DNA from: Candidatus Fervidifonticultor quintus
GTDB taxonomy: Bacteria > Sysuimicrobiota > Sysuimicrobiia > Sysuimicrobiales > Humicultoraceae
Reading direction: 5' to 3'
DNA length: 12,569 nt
NCBI GenBank assembly: GCA_031459535.1
Contig: JAVKIJ010000085.1
Location: 1 to 12,569, forward strand
Shown: positions 3,170 to 7,396 of the stretch, piece after piece
How the letters are laid out: the number at the start of each line of letters is the position of its first letter
Numbering within the stretch: position 1 is the stretch's first letter
Made by a program: the position numbers and the translations under genes
Notes under the pieces: generated by a model
The model's database searches: none
The model's input: the letters and a program-made list of their open reading frames with translations, nothing else
Told to the model about the DNA's origin: nothing

Positions 3170-4138
3170 ATGACCCCTATCAGTGTGGTTTCCTACGGAC
3201 TCGGCCCCATCGGCGCAAGCATCGCCCTCCACGCGCTGGACGTCGGGTACCGGATCGTCGGGGCCGTGGACATCGACCCCGAGAAGGCCGGGCGCGACCT
3301 TGGCGCGCTGATCGGCCGCGACCCCCTCGGCGTCACGATCACGGCTGACCCGGCCGAGGCGCTGGCCCGCGGACCTCAGGTTGTGCTGCACTCCACGCAG
3401 TCCCACATCCCCGAGGTCCTCTCTCAGATCCTGGAGTGCCTGGAGGCCGGCGCGTGCGTGGTGTCCACGTGCGAGGAAATGGCTTTTCCGTGGTACCGGC
3501 ATCCGGCCGCGGCACACAGGATCGATCGGGTCGCCAAGGCGAAGCACGTTGCCGCCGTCGGCGTCGGCGTGAACCCCGGCTTCGTCATGGATTTGCTGCC
3601 GGTGGTACTGACCGCGCCCTGCCGCGACGTCCGGTCCATCCACGTGACCCGCGTGGTGGACGCCGGCAAGCGGCGTCTCCCTCTACAGCGCAAGGTCGGC
3701 GCGGGCATGACGCGGGCAGAGTTTGTGGCGGGCGTGGCCGAAGGACGCCTGGGACACGTAGGACTCCAGGAATCGGTGGCCATGATCGCCGATGCGCTCG
3801 GCTGGCAGCTCGATGGCATCACCGAAGACATTGAGCCGGTCGCCGACGGCGAGCAGGTCAGGGGACTGCACCAGGTCGCCCGGGGCTCCCAGGGCGGCCG
3901 CCCGGTCATCACACTGGACCTGACCATGGCCGTGGGCGCGCCGAACCCGCGCGACAGCATCGTCATCGAGGGAGACCCCCCACTCCATGTCACGGCCGCC
4001 GGGGGCGTGCACGGGGACATCGCCACCTGTGCGATCGCCGTCAATGCCATCCCTCGCATACTGGAGGCGCCGCCCGGGCTGACCGCGGTCCACCGTCTGC
4101 CCCCGCTCCGATACGGCGACGCCCGCTCATCCTGGTAA
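3170..4138 (+). CDS. NAD(P)-dependent dehydrogenase, 2,4-diaminopentanoate dehydrogenase (Ord) / DapB-N-like family, 322 aa
   Basis: Start reassigned to ATG 3170 (GGAGG at 3161-3165). Rossmann motif 'YGLGPIG', then 'GAVDIDPEKAG', 'VVSTCEEM', 'GVNPGFVMD' and C-terminal 'GGVHGDIATCAIAVNAIP...APPGL'. Confidence 0.8.
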   Translation: MTPISVVSYGLGPIGASIALHALDVGYRIVGAVDIDPEKAGRDLGALIGRDPLGVTITADPAEALARGPQVVLHSTQSHIPEVLSQILECLEAGACVVSTCEEMAFPWYRHPAAAHRIDRVAKAKHVAAVGVGVNPGFVMDLLPVVLTAPCRDVRSIHVTRVVDAGKRRLPLQRKVGAGMTRAEFVAGVAEGRLGHVGLQESVAMIADALGWQLDGITEDIEPVADGEQVRGLHQVARGSQGGRPVITLDLTMAVGAPNPRDSIVIEGDPPLHVTAAGGVHGDIATCAIAVNAIPRILEAPPGLTAVHRLPPLRYGDARSSW

Positions 4139-5416
4139 CTCCGGCAAGCGGCGCTGCGCGACGGCGCAGTGCCCCTCGCACGCTCCCGGGATCAGGACCC
4201 GCCGGCGCCTGGCCACCATGTCGTAGAGCCTCTGCCCGGCCACCACGCGCACGGCAGCCAGGAGTGGAACCACGGGCCACAGGACGACGAGGCGCCCACC
4301 GATGGCCACGATCGCGTCGAGCCCTTCTTTGACCGCGCCCGAGGCCGTGACGGCCTGAATGCGGCGGGTCGCGCGGTCCGCGTCCAGACCATGGGTCTCG
4401 AGCACCCCGGGGTCGCGGAACGAGACGAACTGCACCAGTGACAGAATGTCGCACCGGGCCCACCGGCGGACGCTCCGCGTGCACAGCAGGCACCAGCCGT
4501 CGTAGAGCACGACCAGGTGCCACCGCCTTCGCAGCCATCCGGCCAGTTGCCGGTACTCGCCGTCGGTCAGAAGCAGGGGGTAGAGACTCAGCATGCTCCA
4601 GGCGAAGGTGACGAGGCCCATGAGTGCGGCGATGGCGCTGTGAAAGGCCACTCCAGCGGCAATCATCGCATACCGGGTCCACCGGTTGAGCAGCAACGGG
4701 AGGAACATGATCTCGAAGAGCACCGTGCCGTACGTGGCGCCGACTACCAGGTACGGATTGCGATAGACGAGAGCGGCCGCGCGCGGCCAGGAGAACTCGT
4801 CCACCCGCAGGACGTAGTACAGGGCGGTGCCATTCTGCCACATCTCTCCCATGGCCTTGTACAGGCCGGTGCTCATGTACAGGAGCGACAGCTGGGCGAT
4901 GATGAGCAGGACCCCCGCATTGTGGGCGATGGCCCGCACCTGGCGCCACCACGGCGGCAGCGGGCGATCTGGTCGGCGCGCGTCCAACGAGAAATGGGCG
5001 CCCGCGTCAACGAGCACCAGGAAGAGCAGCGCCAGGCGCATGATGTTGTCGCCACCGTCGGTAATGAATGGATTCCGCATCTGCAGCGACCAGAGCAGCA
5101 GCCAGTGTAACGCGGTCGAGAGCCGCGTCCGGTACCCGAGAGTGAACGACAACGCGACCACCATGCCCGCCAGGTAGACCGCCTCGAAGAAGAGGGGTGA
5201 CGGGCTGAGCTGCCAGACCGAGAACGGCGGTTGTAGCCCCACGAACCGGTCGTGCGGCCAGATCCCGGCCGGCCCCCACAGCAGATGGCGGACGGGGACG
5301 TGCAGCGCGTAGTAGTAGAGGGCCCACATCCCCAGCAGGATGCGGACCAGCGAGGCTCCCACCAGCCAGCGTTCCTGGGAGAACCAGACCAGTACCCGTG
5401 CACCCAGAATCCGCAC
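4127..5416 (-). CDS. SdpB-like HTTM-domain membrane protein (vitamin K-dependent gamma-carboxylase-like) fused to a C-terminal DCC1/DUF393 thiol-disulfide oxidoreductase domain, about 429 aa
   Basis: Multiple TM helices with HTTM motifs 'LGYRTR', 'RNPFITDGGDNIMRL', 'QLSLLYMSTGLYK...W.NGTALYY' and 'FH.AIAALMGL.TF'. C-terminal 'VLYDGWCLLC' DCC motif. Start chosen at GTG 5416 (GAGGTGA SD, 5 nt spacer); GTG 5425 overlapping the upstream stop is an alternative. Confidence 0.85.
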   Translation of the reverse strand: MRILGARVLVWFSQERWLVGASLVRILLGMWALYYYALHVPVRHLLWGPAGIWPHDRFVGLQPPFSVWQLSPSPLFFEAVYLAGMVVALSFTLGYRTRLSTALHWLLLWSLQMRNPFITDGGDNIMRLALLFLVLVDAGAHFSLDARRPDRPLPPWWRQVRAIAHNAGVLLIIAQLSLLYMSTGLYKAMGEMWQNGTALYYVLRVDEFSWPRAAALVYRNPYLVVGATYGTVLFEIMFLPLLLNRWTRYAMIAAGVAFHSAIAALMGLVTFAWSMLSLYPLLLTDGEYRQLAGWLRRRWHLVVLYDGWCLLCTRSVRRWARCDILSLVQFVSFRDPGVLETHGLDADRATRRIQAVTASGAVKEGLDAIVAIGGRLVVLWPVVPLLAAVRVVAGQRLYDMVARRRRVLIPGACEGHCAVAQRRLPELPG

Positions 5417-5421
5417 GGCGA

Positions 5422-6063
5422 TCACCTCGCGGGCTGATAGGCGTCCCACGGGAGCCCGATGAACCGGGTGAGCCCCGCGGAGGCCGGCAGATCCCGCCTC
5501 GACCACGCCGGCGGGGTGTGCATGAGGATCCGCATCTGCACCGCTCTCGTCTGTCCCGATCCGACGACCCGATCGCAGGCCATTGACGCGGTGCGACGAA
5601 GCAGGTAGGCTCCTGCGTCTCGAAGCCTGTCCACGACCGGCCCCTCCCGGCGGCAGGCCGGGGAGTTGGGCGTGCGCTTGCAGATCACCTGACGCCACTC
5701 GTCGTGGGTGACCCCCAGGAACAGCCTGATGGCATTCTGCTGGACACGCAGGATGCGGCCCATGGGTGACGTCCGATTCCTGTGGTGGCGCGCGAGCAGG
5801 GGCTGTGTGGCGTCGATCCATGGTGATGTGACGGTCTGGGTGCGACAGCGCACCGACAGCACGTAGTTGGTGCGAATGGGGTTAGGGGCGAAGAGATGCC
5901 AGTTCTGCGCGAATAGCGGGTGCGCGAGCCGGAAGACGACCGGTAGCCACTGGGCCTTGACCGGGTTCGGCGGCGTCAGGTACAGCACGGTATTCGCGAG
6001 GTAGAGCCCCGCGGCTGCCAGGACGACGATGAGAACGACCGTGGGTAGGATGACGCGTTGCAC
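5422..6063 (-). CDS. SdpA / DUF5819 family protein, 213 aa
   Basis: N-terminal TM helix, then 'LYLTPPNPVK' and the signature 'PLFAQNWHLFAPNP'. Lies directly upstream of the HTTM gene. GTG 6063 has a GAGGAGG RBS. Confidence 0.82.
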   Translation of the reverse strand: MQRVILPTVVLIVVLAAAGLYLANTVLYLTPPNPVKAQWLPVVFRLAHPLFAQNWHLFAPNPIRTNYVLSVRCRTQTVTSPWIDATQPLLARHHRNRTSPMGRILRVQQNAIRLFLGVTHDEWRQVICKRTPNSPACRREGPVVDRLRDAGAYLLRRTASMACDRVVGSGQTRAVQMRILMHTPPAWSRRDLPASAGLTRFIGLPWDAYQPAR

Positions 6064-6081
6064 TGCAGACCTCCTCGGGCC

Positions 6082-6110
6082 GCCTGGGGGAGGGAGGCCT
6101 TCCCCCAGGC
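6082..6110 (-). promoter_or_regulatory. Intergenic GC-rich stem-loop (mRNA stabiliser or attenuator candidate)
   Basis: Perfect 10-bp inverted repeat GCCTGGGGGA (6082-6091) / TCCCCCAGGC (6101-6110) with a 9-nt spacer. No U-tract on the minus strand. Confidence 0.65.
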
Positions 6111-6133
6111 ATTCTTCCAGCCCAAAGCCGGCT

Positions 6134-6553
6134 CTAGGGGGCCGGGTCGAAGAGCTCAGGCACGAGCTGCGTCTGGAGCTGCCCTGGCGCCTCGCCGCCG
6201 AGACGTTCGGCGGCCCACTTGGCAGCCTCAAGGGCGAGCGCCTGAAGCCCGGCGGTGACCGCGGCCAACGCGATCTCGCGCCACCACTCTGGCGATGAGA
6301 GGCTCTCTTCCTGGCTGTAGGCGTAGTCGCCGCCGTAGTCGCCCACGTACGCCACATCGCCGTCGACACCCATGTCGGCCATGCCCGTCAGGGCCGACGA
6401 TACGGGCAGGCATTGCCCCGACATCTGCGCCGGAGCCCCGTGGCACTGCCGGAAGGCCGTGCTGGCCTCCGGAAGAGGCTGCGCCCTCGACCCCCGCACG
6501 GCTACCGCCGTGACGAGAAACACCAGGACCAGCAATCCTGCAACCGTCTTCAC
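6134..6553 (-). CDS. Secreted hypothetical protein, putative peptide/toxin precursor, 139 aa
   Basis: GTG 6553 with a GGAGGGG RBS. Sec-type signal peptide 'MKTVAGLLVLVFLVTAVA', two Cys, an acidic linker and an amphipathic Ala/Leu/Trp helix ending in GG. Located between the CPBP and sdpA-like genes. Confidence 0.75.
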   Translation of the reverse strand: MKTVAGLLVLVFLVTAVAVRGSRAQPLPEASTAFRQCHGAPAQMSGQCLPVSSALTGMADMGVDGDVAYVGDYGGDYAYSQEESLSSPEWWREIALAAVTAGLQALALEAAKWAAERLGGEAPGQLQTQLVPELFDPAP

Positions 6554-6634
6554 ACAAATCCCCTCCCTCTGCCGACCGTGGTCCGGCCGAGCCCGCTGTG
6601 ACTTCACCCCATTTATCGGCAGCGAGTGGGGCAG

Positions 6635-7396
6635 CTACCGGGATCGGGCTTCGAAGATCACCACGGCAGTGGCCGAGAGGTTCAACACGACGTGCGAGAT
6701 CGTGGACGCGCCCGTGCCCCAACGCCACCGCACGGCTCCGAGCATCAGGGATGACGCGATGAGGACCGTCGTACGGCTCACCGAAAGATCGACGACCACG
6801 TGCTTGGCGGCAAACATCGCCGCCGTGGCCAGCAGCGCTGCGCCCGGGCTCCAGGCCCCCGCGAGCACCGACTGGATGATGCCCCGCCACACGAACTCCT
6901 CGACGACCGGCGCCAGCAGGCCGTTCTCGACCAGGAACATCAGTGTCACCATGAGGCTGGCTTCTCGAAATCCCTGCGCGAGTGCTTCGTAGGCGACCGG
7001 CCCGAAGACGCGTCCATCCACCATGGACGCCGGGTACAGGCCCGCGAAGAGCCCGGCGCCGGCGGCCGCCCCGGCGGCGGCAGCCGCCCACGAGAGCCGG
7101 TATCCCATCGAGCCGAGGCCAAGCCCTGCGCGGCGCCTGTACCGGTCGAACCACGCACCCAGGATGCCGAAGGCCAGCGCGCCGGCGACCGCCTCGGTGG
7201 CGATCAGCAGCCCGGGCGAGGGTCGTACGCCGCCCCGTTCCCACAGAGCAATCCATACCGCCGCGCCGCCGGCGGCGCGGATGCCAAACTCGACAGCCAC
7301 CCACCGCAGCGCCGCACCGATGCCGGCGCTGGCGGGGAGCCGCGCGGGCGTCACGTCGCTCGCCACGGCACCGGCAGCAGGATCCCTTATGGCCAC
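6635..7396 (-). CDS. CPBP family intramembrane glutamic endopeptidase (CAAX protease-like / Abi), about 253 aa
   Basis: Hydrophobic protein with intact motifs 'LAPVVEEFVWRG' (EExxxR), 'FAAKH' (FxxxH) and 'SHVVLN' (HxxxN). Exact start uncertain. Confidence 0.88.
   Translation of the reverse strand: MAIRDPAAGAVASDVTPARLPASAGIGAALRWVAVEFGIRAAGGAAVWIALWERGGVRPSPGLLIATEAVAGALAFGILGAWFDRYRRRAGLGLGSMGYRLSWAAAAAGAAAGAGLFAGLYPASMVDGRVFGPVAYEALAQGFREASLMVTLMFLVENGLLAPVVEEFVWRGIIQSVLAGAWSPGAALLATAAMFAAKHVVVDLSVSRTTVLIASSLMLGAVRWRWGTGASTISHVVLNLSATAVVIFEARSR

Follow-up and report, generated by a model that had tools for sequence, protein, structure and literature searches.

What would a bacterium do with a small secreted protein of no known family, encoded beside an intramembrane protease and two further membrane proteins, one of which carries a redox domain? 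The question is raised by contig JAVKIJ010000085.1 of Candidatus Fervidifonticultor quintus (assembly GCA_031459535.1), whose 12,569 nucleotides, read on the forward strand, are called the window here. An earlier note had seen four co-oriented, close-packed genes at 4127..7396 and had read them as a variant Sdp-like cassette for peptide maturation. The four-gene cassette is confirmed at that place on the minus strand, along which the order is CPBP protease, small open reading frame (ORF), DUF5819 and HTTM-DCC, and the families assigned to three of the genes all score above their Pfam cut-offs. Our preferred answer, which could about equally well prove right or wrong, is an Sdp-type maturation of an exported precursor with a Phe-Asp (FD) tail by a split enzyme akin to the vitamin K-dependent carboxylase (GGCX), which would carry its own redox partner and be accompanied by a protease.

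A conserved module and its FD-tailed neighbour

Conservation was surveyed in 94 genomes of the phylum, including the unpublished G019 and G027. The small-protein profile matched in 18 of them, all in one family of the phylum, and a close HTTM-DCC orthologue (E <1e-100) is present in 20, which include all 18. A CPBP orthologue (E <=1e-15) was found in 15 genomes, every one within these 20, and in none of the 74 others. Each small-protein match lies on the contig that holds the HTTM-DCC match or part of it; as for the two HTTM-DCC genomes beyond the 18, the match starts from contig base 2 in one (G007) and the other is 59% complete (G025). The earlier note had staked its proposal on the membrane-protein pair co-occurring with similar small secreted ORFs and with CPBP genes, and the pair does co-occur with them. 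Because this co-occurrence is found across genomes and loci, the four-gene module is real, and the four genes form a conserved module.

An FD-tailed neighbour ORF occurs beside HTTM/DUF5819 in at least eight clades. Around HTTM homologues of species-representative genomes 80 loci were fetched, 81 with the window, and a DUF5819-like ORF adjoins HTTM in 76 of the 81. Homologues of the small ORF itself were found in 14 of the 80 fetched loci (15 ORFs), each directly upstream of the DUF5819 gene, and clustering of the neighbours over the 81 loci shows that in other clades the same slot holds different small signal-peptide ORFs that also end in FD. Among the 76 loci where DUF5819 adjoins HTTM, 56 have a same-strand ORF that ends in FD plus zero to four residues and stops just before DUF5819, against about 1.3 loci expected by chance from the background among the remaining ORFs of those loci (46/6214); with a looser positional window the count is 60/81. 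The clades contribute 15 of 18 loci (window's clade), 11 of 13 (Bacillaceae/Caryophanaceae), 5 of 6 (Paenibacillaceae), 3 of 5 (Chloroflexota), 10 of 12 (Streptomyces group), 2 of 2 (Microbacteriaceae), 8 of 10 (Myxococcota) and 5 of 7 (Acidobacteriota), and the single case among eight Thermoactinomycetaceae loci is probably a spurious ORF. The FD-tail gene lies downstream rather than upstream in Vicinamibacterales and Jeotgalibacillus.

The tail consensus among the 61 non-redundant neighbour proteins of the 56 loci is [AL][EDS]x[LAVI]FD, followed by no residue in 17 proteins, one in 25, two in 3, three in 14 and four in 2. Two FD-tail genes on the cassette strand, mostly side by side, are found in six loci (L003, L007, L020, L025, L029 and L056; for example 4277-4720 and 4843-5280 in L003), and one genome of the window's genus has a second copy of the small protein (G009:C24:28690-29693). 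Multiplied precursor genes are typical of bacteriocin loci and of loci for peptides that are made on ribosomes and modified after translation (RiPPs).

FD-tail proteins match no Pfam family, and their sole NCBIfam match is a chance one (16 bits against a cut-off of 348); Streptomyces and Paenibacillus records annotate them as 'hypothetical protein'. Beyond the papers cited here, nothing relevant that describes FD-tail substrates turned up in the literature searched, which left subscription journals mostly outside. Compared by hhalign, the Bacillaceae FD-tail profile reaches 96% with that of Chloroflexota, 94% with Streptomyces and 90% with Microbacteriaceae, and further pairs reach 88% (Chloroflexota/Streptomyces) and 78% (window's clade/Acidobacteriota). 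Since this cross-clade comparison supports homology only in part, we call the FD-tail proteins of different clades architecturally equivalent, with common descent unproven.

The proteins and their setting

The small protein consists of a signal peptide (residues ~1-25, with the site between GSRA and QP), a loop from Cys37 to Cys48, an acidic Gly/Asp-rich disordered linker, a helix (88-118) and a 21-residue tail that ends in ...ELFDPAP. No family of Pfam or NCBIfam matched the ORF. Its GC content at codon positions 1/2/3 (0.74/0.51/0.83) resembles that of the neighbour genes, an identical 139-amino-acid gene call is present in NCBI records, and a GGGAGGGG/GAGGAGGGG-type ribosome-binding motif precedes the matching start codon in homologous loci. 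Among 16 aligned small proteins the invariant residues are A18, S22, A24, C37, C48, F135 and D136, the first three being signal-peptide positions around the GSRA/QP site, and the middle (the acidic Gly/Asp-rich stretch and the helix) varies freely. In the AlphaFold2 (AF2) model, whose mean predicted local distance difference test score (pLDDT) is 62.7, helices are placed at 2-22, 32-38 and 88-118, the last with confidence, and 50-82 and the 21-residue tail are disordered. With a mean Kyte-Doolittle hydropathy of 0.28, the Ala-rich helix 88-118 is only mildly hydrophobic, and the mature protein is acidic, with 6 Lys+Arg against 15 Asp+Glu.

A profile hidden Markov model (HMM) of the small protein, searched against 1.84 billion protein representatives, matched 69 cluster representatives, 59 of which end in FD plus zero to four terminal residues; the remainder comprises a junk repeat, forms that are truncated or read through, and a single tail in which five residues follow FD. 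Its top-scoring match, P0125 (1567 amino acids), was rejected as a false positive, being highly repetitive with 23 weak repeats matched, and is a caution for profiles built on short low-complexity proteins. Turandot, the best look-alike of the small protein in the ESM Atlas, was likewise dropped (score 0.78, under chance level).

The product of the next gene belongs to DUF5819 (PF19136; 76 bits against a cut-off of 27.1, E 6.8e-21) and is the single copy in the window's genome (77.5 bits in the genome search). It has a single predicted N-terminal membrane helix and then a basic ectodomain (27 Lys+Arg against 9 Asp+Glu), its AF2 model has a mean pLDDT of 89.9, and the protein is predicted to be the partner subunit of the HTTM protein. 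Its ectodomain and the mature small protein stand in charge contrast (27 vs 9 as against 6 vs 15), and across loci the median net charge is +8.5 for DUF5819 (n=34, 26 positive) and -4 for the FD-tail proteins (n=62, 45 negative). The gene had been labelled SdpA-like, a label that has to be replaced: at E <=0.01 the protein matches no SdpA model of Pfam or NCBIfam, including Pfam SdpA (PF17418), which a YitP-like protein matches with E 3.1e-36. The DUF5819 profile aligned to YitP by hhalign gives a probability of 3.2%, which is not significant; a QxWxxFxxNP-like motif is common to both.

The last gene of the cassette encodes a two-domain fusion of HTTM (an SdpB/GGCX-type membrane domain, ~1-300; PF05090, 39.5 bits against a cut-off of 27.7) and a DCC1-like thiol-disulfide oxidoreductase (~303-432; PF04134, 50.4 bits against 27.8), so that the redox fusion proposed at the outset holds. 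This is the only HTTM in the window's genome. The accompanying name SdpB also has to be corrected: the protein is homologous to a YitO-like SdpB paralogue and lies outside that subfamily, at 61.1 bits against the TIGR04033 cut-off of 178.4. A word-indexed search returned 147 HTTM-DCC relatives; among the 120 listed, the majority carry the two Pfam domains together, and 'DCC1-like thiol-disulfide oxidoreductase' is the sole name that many of them bear. HTTM-DCC fusions are common, with loci from several phyla. A DCC protein also appears in PMC8743628, as an entry of an association table that has no bearing on the cassette. Alignment shows K190, W196 and F274 to be invariant, together with D309, G310, C312 and C315 in the DCC domain, where DxxCxxC is the defining motif of the DCC1-like family. 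The profile of the protein matches human GGCX chains (HMMER, E 1.1e-06), with Lys190 aligned to the second K of the GGCX 'VKK', that is, by the offset between chains, K218 of the full-length protein, which we take to be the catalytic base.

The pair of DUF5819 and HTTM-DCC1, which the earlier note had counted towards an undescribed system, is already presented as a split GGCX-like complex in a 2026 preprint (bioRxiv 10.64898/2026.08.19.745780). According to its accessible text, the DUF5819 protein and the adjacent HTTM-DCC1 protein of Melghirimyces thermohalophilus form a confident predicted complex resembling the whole GGCX, with a predicted menaquinol pocket lined by Lys189, Trp195 and Phe273, the counterparts of K190, W196 and F274 here; in that model the GGCX-type substrate channel is blocked and there is an alternative opening. 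The accessible text names no substrate, and the words SdpA, SdpB, precursor, sporulation, CPBP and neighbour are absent from it. In domain architecture, in the Lys/Trp/Phe triad, in the two-gene core and in the split-GGCX reading the two cases agree; the FD-tail neighbours and the clade-specific hydrolases are what the main-text passages do not have.

A redox partner recurs in the loci, which fits a quinone-cycling enzyme. DCC is fused to HTTM in 37 of the 81 loci, is a separate ORF in 3 Bacillaceae/Caryophanaceae loci (2/3 confirmed by Pfam), and is replaced by a flavin adenine dinucleotide (FAD) oxidoreductase in 8 actinobacterial loci. In the Rhodoglobus locus L073 (4034-5497) the FAD oxidoreductase gene overlaps the HTTM stop, and in some of the actinobacterial loci (L032:6974-10009, L073 and L074) the HTTM gene, which lacks DCC, precedes genes for a beta-lactamase-fold hydrolase and for an FAD oxidoreductase resembling amine oxidases, which may serve as redox partner instead. 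The conserved CxxC of the DCC domain is likely the redox partner of the enzyme. MenA is present in the window's genome (185.9 bits against a cut-off of 102), and the MqnA family of the futalosine route was not found there.

The CPBP protein belongs to PF02517 (44.8 bits against a cut-off of 22.4, E 1.5e-11), and its motifs EExxxR (E166 E167 R171), FxxxH (F195 H199) and HxxxN (H235 N239) are intact, with their residues invariant in 12/12 orthologue sequences; EExxxR, FxxxH and HxxxN/D are the defining motifs of the CPBP/Rce1-like family. Membership of the myxosortase-type Mrt group is not indicated by NCBIfam, where the best score is 37.9 bits against cut-offs of 75-250. Over the 18 loci of the window's clade, the window included, a CPBP orthologue adjoins the core in 12, upstream of the precursor in 7 and downstream of HTTM-DCC in 5, and these are 12/12 of the loci with both flanks; each of the six loci without a seen CPBP has one flank ended by a contig end. 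In one lineage (L013:5028-5312; L089:2946-3230) CPBP is present downstream of HTTM-DCC only as a 94-amino-acid ORF, a remnant that may reflect decay, a frameshift or an assembly error, and genome G018 has a CPBP fragment downstream of HTTM-DCC. More generally, a membrane-anchored hydrolase adjoins the core and its type varies by clade: the window's clade and Shimazuella have CPBP, Chloroflexota and Bacillaceae a transglutaminase-like protein, Paenibacillus and Streptomyces one of beta-lactamase fold, and M23 occurs in Paenibacillus among others. One processing step seems to have been taken over by non-orthologous enzymes.

Gene starts were refined from ribosome-binding sites and homologues (Table 1). 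The CPBP start lies 9 nt past the comF stop, the GTG start of HTTM-DCC overlaps the DUF5819 stop (GTGA) and the remaining intergenic gaps are 70-81 nt; given this overlap and these gaps, the packing of the four genes is operon-like. Same-strand genes upstream of the cassette are comF, ahcY, rpoD and dnaG, and downstream come a convergent DAP-dehydrogenase-like gene and then an aminotransferase on the cassette strand. The HTTM-DCC 3' end and the end of the convergent plus-strand gene share 12 nt (4127-4138), and the Pfam match of the latter is the 2,4-diaminopentanoate dehydrogenase C-terminal domain. Between 3900 and 8400 the promoter and terminator scan was uninformative, with no promoter-like site and 2 terminator-like sites where 1.1 are expected. 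In one RNA-library run, which belongs to the study that also yielded the likely source runs, contigs match parts of each of the four genes; the library may contain DNA and its contigs cannot show transcription, so they give a weak hint that all four are transcribed.

Table 1. Positions, in window coordinates, of the cassette genes and of selected sites within them
Feature	Position	Strand	Details
CPBP/Rce1-like glutamic-type intramembrane protease	6635..7396	minus	253 aa; PF02517
Ribosome-binding site GGGAGGGG of the small ORF	6560..6567	minus	7 nt before GTG start
Small secreted FD-tail protein	6134..6553	minus	139 aa + stop; no known family
Codons for Phe135-Asp136, C-terminal tail of the small protein	6146..6151	minus	invariant in 16-sequence alignment
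DUF5819 protein	5422..6063	minus	213 aa; PF19136; GAGGAGG ribosome-binding site
HTTM-DCC1 fusion	4127..5425	minus	432 aa; PF05090 + PF04134
Codon for invariant Lys190 of HTTM-DCC	4856..4858	minus	aligned on human GGCX Lys218
CxxC codons of the DCC domain (Cys312-Leu-Leu-Cys315, in YDGWCLLC)	4481..4492	minus	invariant cysteines

The window has 66-75% G+C (500-base windows) and comes from an assembly of 3.1 Mb in 138 contigs that is 88.9% complete. Its nearest public loci carry the labels Candidatus Fervidifonticultor, Ca. Humicultoraceae, Ca. Sysuimicrobiota and 'Armatimonadota bacterium', and hot-spring metagenome runs contain DNA near-identical to it. The phylum is uncultivated and likely facultatively anaerobic, according to the accessible part of PMC11604079.

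A proposed maturation of an FD-tailed precursor, and rival readings

Under the preferred reading, the 139-amino-acid protein would be exported via its signal peptide, and DUF5819 and the HTTM domain would make up a split membrane enzyme of the GGCX type that recognises the precursor through the hydrophobic-Phe-Asp C-terminal tail or modifies that tail. The most specific guess at the chemistry is that the invariant Asp is carboxylated in a reaction dependent on menaquinone and O2, as with MloH, a bacterial HTTM enzyme that carboxylates an aspartyl residue according to the accessible passages of the same preprint (bioRxiv 10.64898/2026.08.19.745780) and of two other papers. The conserved residues of the enzyme and MenA in the genome are indirect support for such a function. 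The fused DCC CxxC domain would regenerate the quinone cofactor in a VKOR-like manner, and CPBP would trim the precursor, for example freeing the region around helix 88-118 as SDP is freed from SdpC, or alternatively protect the producer. Taken to its full extent, this would make the FD-tailed proteins the first ribosomal substrates of bacterial vitamin K-dependent-type carboxylases, their Asp carboxylated with menaquinol and O2, the quinone recycled by DCC or, in actinobacteria, the FAD oxidoreductase, and the product released by a clade-specific hydrolase; we consider this full version unlikely. What the data show directly is the order of the genes, their domains, the intact catalytic motifs and how the genes and the tail are conserved and co-occur, whereas the substrate relationship, the chemistry, the parts played by DCC and CPBP and a bioactive product are proposals.

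VKOR is the CxxC redox protein associated with GGCX, and the likeness of the cassette to that system includes such an associated CxxC protein, the HTTM homology with the Lys aligned at the catalytic position, and a secreted protein as substrate (a candidate one here). The differences are that GGCX is one chain with lumenal domains of its own, whereas DUF5819 is a separate gene here, that GGCX acts on clustered Glu after an N-terminal propeptide and the candidate site here is a single C-terminal Asp, and that VKOR and DCC are unrelated.

Several results weigh against the preferred reading. The relatives among the surveyed genomes are not independent samples, and comF, ahcY and rpoD synteny is also kept in close relatives, so that part of the linkage is vertical inheritance. 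The DUF5819 model searched alone against the PDB with Foldseek has no match at E <=0.001, GGCX (9bux) coming 39th with E 1.8, and its best VIA-align Z, 5.2, covers N-terminal helices only; the proposal that DUF5819 takes the place of the lumenal clamp of GGCX comes from the preprint. Crude hydropathy gave no membrane side for the DCC domain. Most FD-tail clade pairs are below 60% by hhalign, and several of the matches are signal peptides. Six distant HTTM loci of the same phylum but another family (L083-L088; HTTM is fused to DCC in five, and in L088 the match is confined to the HTTM region) have neither an FD-tail ORF (0/6) nor CPBP (0/6), and the Thermoactinomycetaceae loci, from the family of the preprint's example, lack a convincing FD-tail ORF. 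A small ORF of the FD-tail kind was not found in the Salinithrix locus either. Upstream in L083 (5210-5833) and L086 (4990-5775) lies a secreted, Gly/Thr-rich low-complexity ORF of 207-261 amino acids without an FD tail, which may be a different substrate class.

The best of the alternatives, if an unlikely one, is a classical Sdp/YIT-type antimicrobial, in which the small protein is a toxin precursor, DUF5819 and HTTM-DCC enable its proteolytic maturation without carboxylation, and CPBP is the immunity protein. Processing of SdpC to the 42-amino-acid SDP needs SdpA and SdpB, and YitPOM is a second such toxin system with a different hydrophobic C-terminal domain, as described in the accessible part of PMC6818787. 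The likeness to the sdpABC and yitPOM operons of Bacillus subtilis takes in three features: the HTTM domain and a YitO-like SdpB paralogue share 27% identity (E 2e-13), the HTTM gene is immediately preceded by a small gene for a single-pass partner, and the candidate precursor is built like SdpC and YitM, with a signal peptide first, a helix towards the C-terminus and beyond it a stretch of ~20 residues (~21 here), which is removed in SDP. This shared build also counts in favour of the preferred reading. The hypervariable middle and helix between conserved ends, together with the tandem duplications, resemble bacteriocin precursors, and Abi/CPBP proteins act as immunity proteins in bacteriocin loci. 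SdpI (PF13630) has 0 matches in the window's 88.9%-complete genome, in line with the earlier note, which had seen neither SdpI nor SdpR (SdpR was not searched for); since SdpI is not found, the antimicrobial would need another immunity factor.

Other features of the operons differ. Their partner is Pfam SdpA where that of the cassette is DUF5819, and the SdpC/YitM gene lies downstream where the precursor gene here is upstream and unrelated in sequence; DCC is fused to HTTM and CPBP is present here. That the precursor is unlike SdpC, as first supposed, is borne out by hhalign against YitM (0.3%) and by the SdpC models TIGR04032 and PF26137, neither of which the small protein matches in the Pfam and NCBIfam searches. 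Against a toxin, the helix is only mildly hydrophobic and the mature part acidic, unlike the hydrophobic SDP, the accessory hydrolases of other clades (transglutaminase-like, beta-lactamase-fold, M23) are no known immunity types, and the surroundings are housekeeping genes with no transporter or regulator. The catalytic Lys and the redox partner are conserved, and on that ground we argue for a chemistry beyond scaffolding. On the whole the original Sdp-like interpretation holds but is imprecise: the conserved module stands, and the labels SdpA and SdpB need correcting.

SdpC-family precursors (P0194-P0199) have a conserved C-terminal ...REMAI..L[VLI][DE]xxN, and the end of it, ...L[VLI][DE]xxN, is loosely reminiscent of the FD tail here. 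From these sequences, a hydrophobic-hydrophobic-acidic C-terminal motif may be a general recognition element of HTTM-type maturation systems. One Bacillus spizizenii genome holds both kinds of locus, L045 with FD-tail, DUF5819, HTTM and transglutaminase-like genes and L082, of the yitPOM type, with SdpA (PF17418), HTTM and SdpC-family genes; the two lie apart, and the FD type and the yitPOM type are distinct paralogous types and not variants of one locus.

It is improbable that the small protein is no substrate at all but a third subunit of structural or regulatory kind, or else a periplasmic protein with no relation to the enzyme, which itself would act on a lipid, quinone or other small molecule. 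The blocked GGCX-like channel and other opening of the preprint model would suit such an enzyme, some HTTM/DUF5819 loci have no FD-tail gene, and the substrate of MloH is a non-ribosomal intermediate. As far as the citing papers let MloH of malonomycin biosynthesis be known, it is like the enzyme proposed here in being a bacterial HTTM-type carboxylase acting on an aspartyl residue, and one of its regions corresponds structurally to DUF5819 (bioRxiv 10.64898/2026.08.19.745780, accessible text); it differs in being a fusion protein with a polyketide/non-ribosomal intermediate as substrate, where the candidate here is ribosomal and Sec-exported. Only the signal peptide, the two Cys and the FD tail of the small protein are conserved, and since all the rest varies freely it would be an unusual stable subunit; its model is mostly disordered and its genes are tandemly duplicated, which also speaks against this reading.

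Because the accessory hydrolases differ by clade, there is room for an envelope-anchoring role, in which the FD tail would direct sorting or anchoring from the C-terminus, and HTTM/DUF5819 together with the hydrolase would join the small protein to the envelope, by attachment or cross-linking, in a transpeptidation-like reaction instead of yielding a diffusible peptide. The accessory enzyme types (transglutaminase core, beta-lactamase/penicillin-binding-protein fold, M23) act on peptide cross-links or the cell wall, the motif stands at the extreme C-terminus in all clades, and the best, sub-threshold NCBIfam matches of CPBP are to myxosortase-type Mrt, which process C-terminal sorting signals. 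Those scores are far under the cut-offs, however (38 bits against 75-250). FD is the very C-terminus in 17 of the 61 proteins, in which cleavage after FD is therefore impossible, and known CTERM sorting signals have a membrane helix and a basic tail, neither of which follows FD here. We regard anchoring as improbable.

That the four genes are functionally unlinked and merely share inherited synteny, to which the comF, ahcY and aminotransferase flanks, syntenic in close relatives too, might point, is highly improbable and already disfavoured, as CPBP switches sides of the core yet remains adjacent, presence and absence match across the 94 genomes, and phyla that are unrelated and have other flanking genes keep an FD-tail ORF at this position.

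A further parallel to the cassette is found in linaridin clusters, where an HTTM protein (LinG/CrdG, CypH), its mechanism unexplained, stands beside a precursor and an alpha/beta hydrolase (PMC9927463, accessible part). What is shared is an HTTM membrane protein next to a precursor made on ribosomes and a partner of hydrolase type. The linaridin precursors differ in carrying a leader peptide in place of a Sec signal peptide. In the window, Pfam gave no alpha/beta-fold hydrolase among the 7 ORFs scanned, and a linaridin-type precursor was not seen, its models not having been searched.

What is new and what it would mean

The DUF5819/HTTM-DCC core, in the accessible text of the preprint, and the Sdp/Yit systems are already known. 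The candidate substrate family, the cross-phylum motif and the CPBP linkage were not found in the curated libraries or the literature searched. The function of SdpA/SdpB-type and other bacterial HTTM proteins has been open since SDP was described, and the loci now offer a concrete candidate substrate with one invariant acidic residue, beside the enzyme in at least eight clades, several of which have carriers that can be grown and manipulated genetically (among them Paenibacillus polymyxa relatives, Streptomyces, Bacillus spizizenii and Sorangium). If the carboxylation is true, bacteria too would have vitamin K-dependent protein modification, a function could be assigned to the widespread DCC family, and ribosomal natural products would count one more family. 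These modified peptides would be a class that spans phyla and has been overlooked because its precursors are all annotated as 'hypothetical protein'. If the chemistry is another, the cassette is still a well-delimited, conserved variant of the Sdp-type maturation systems.

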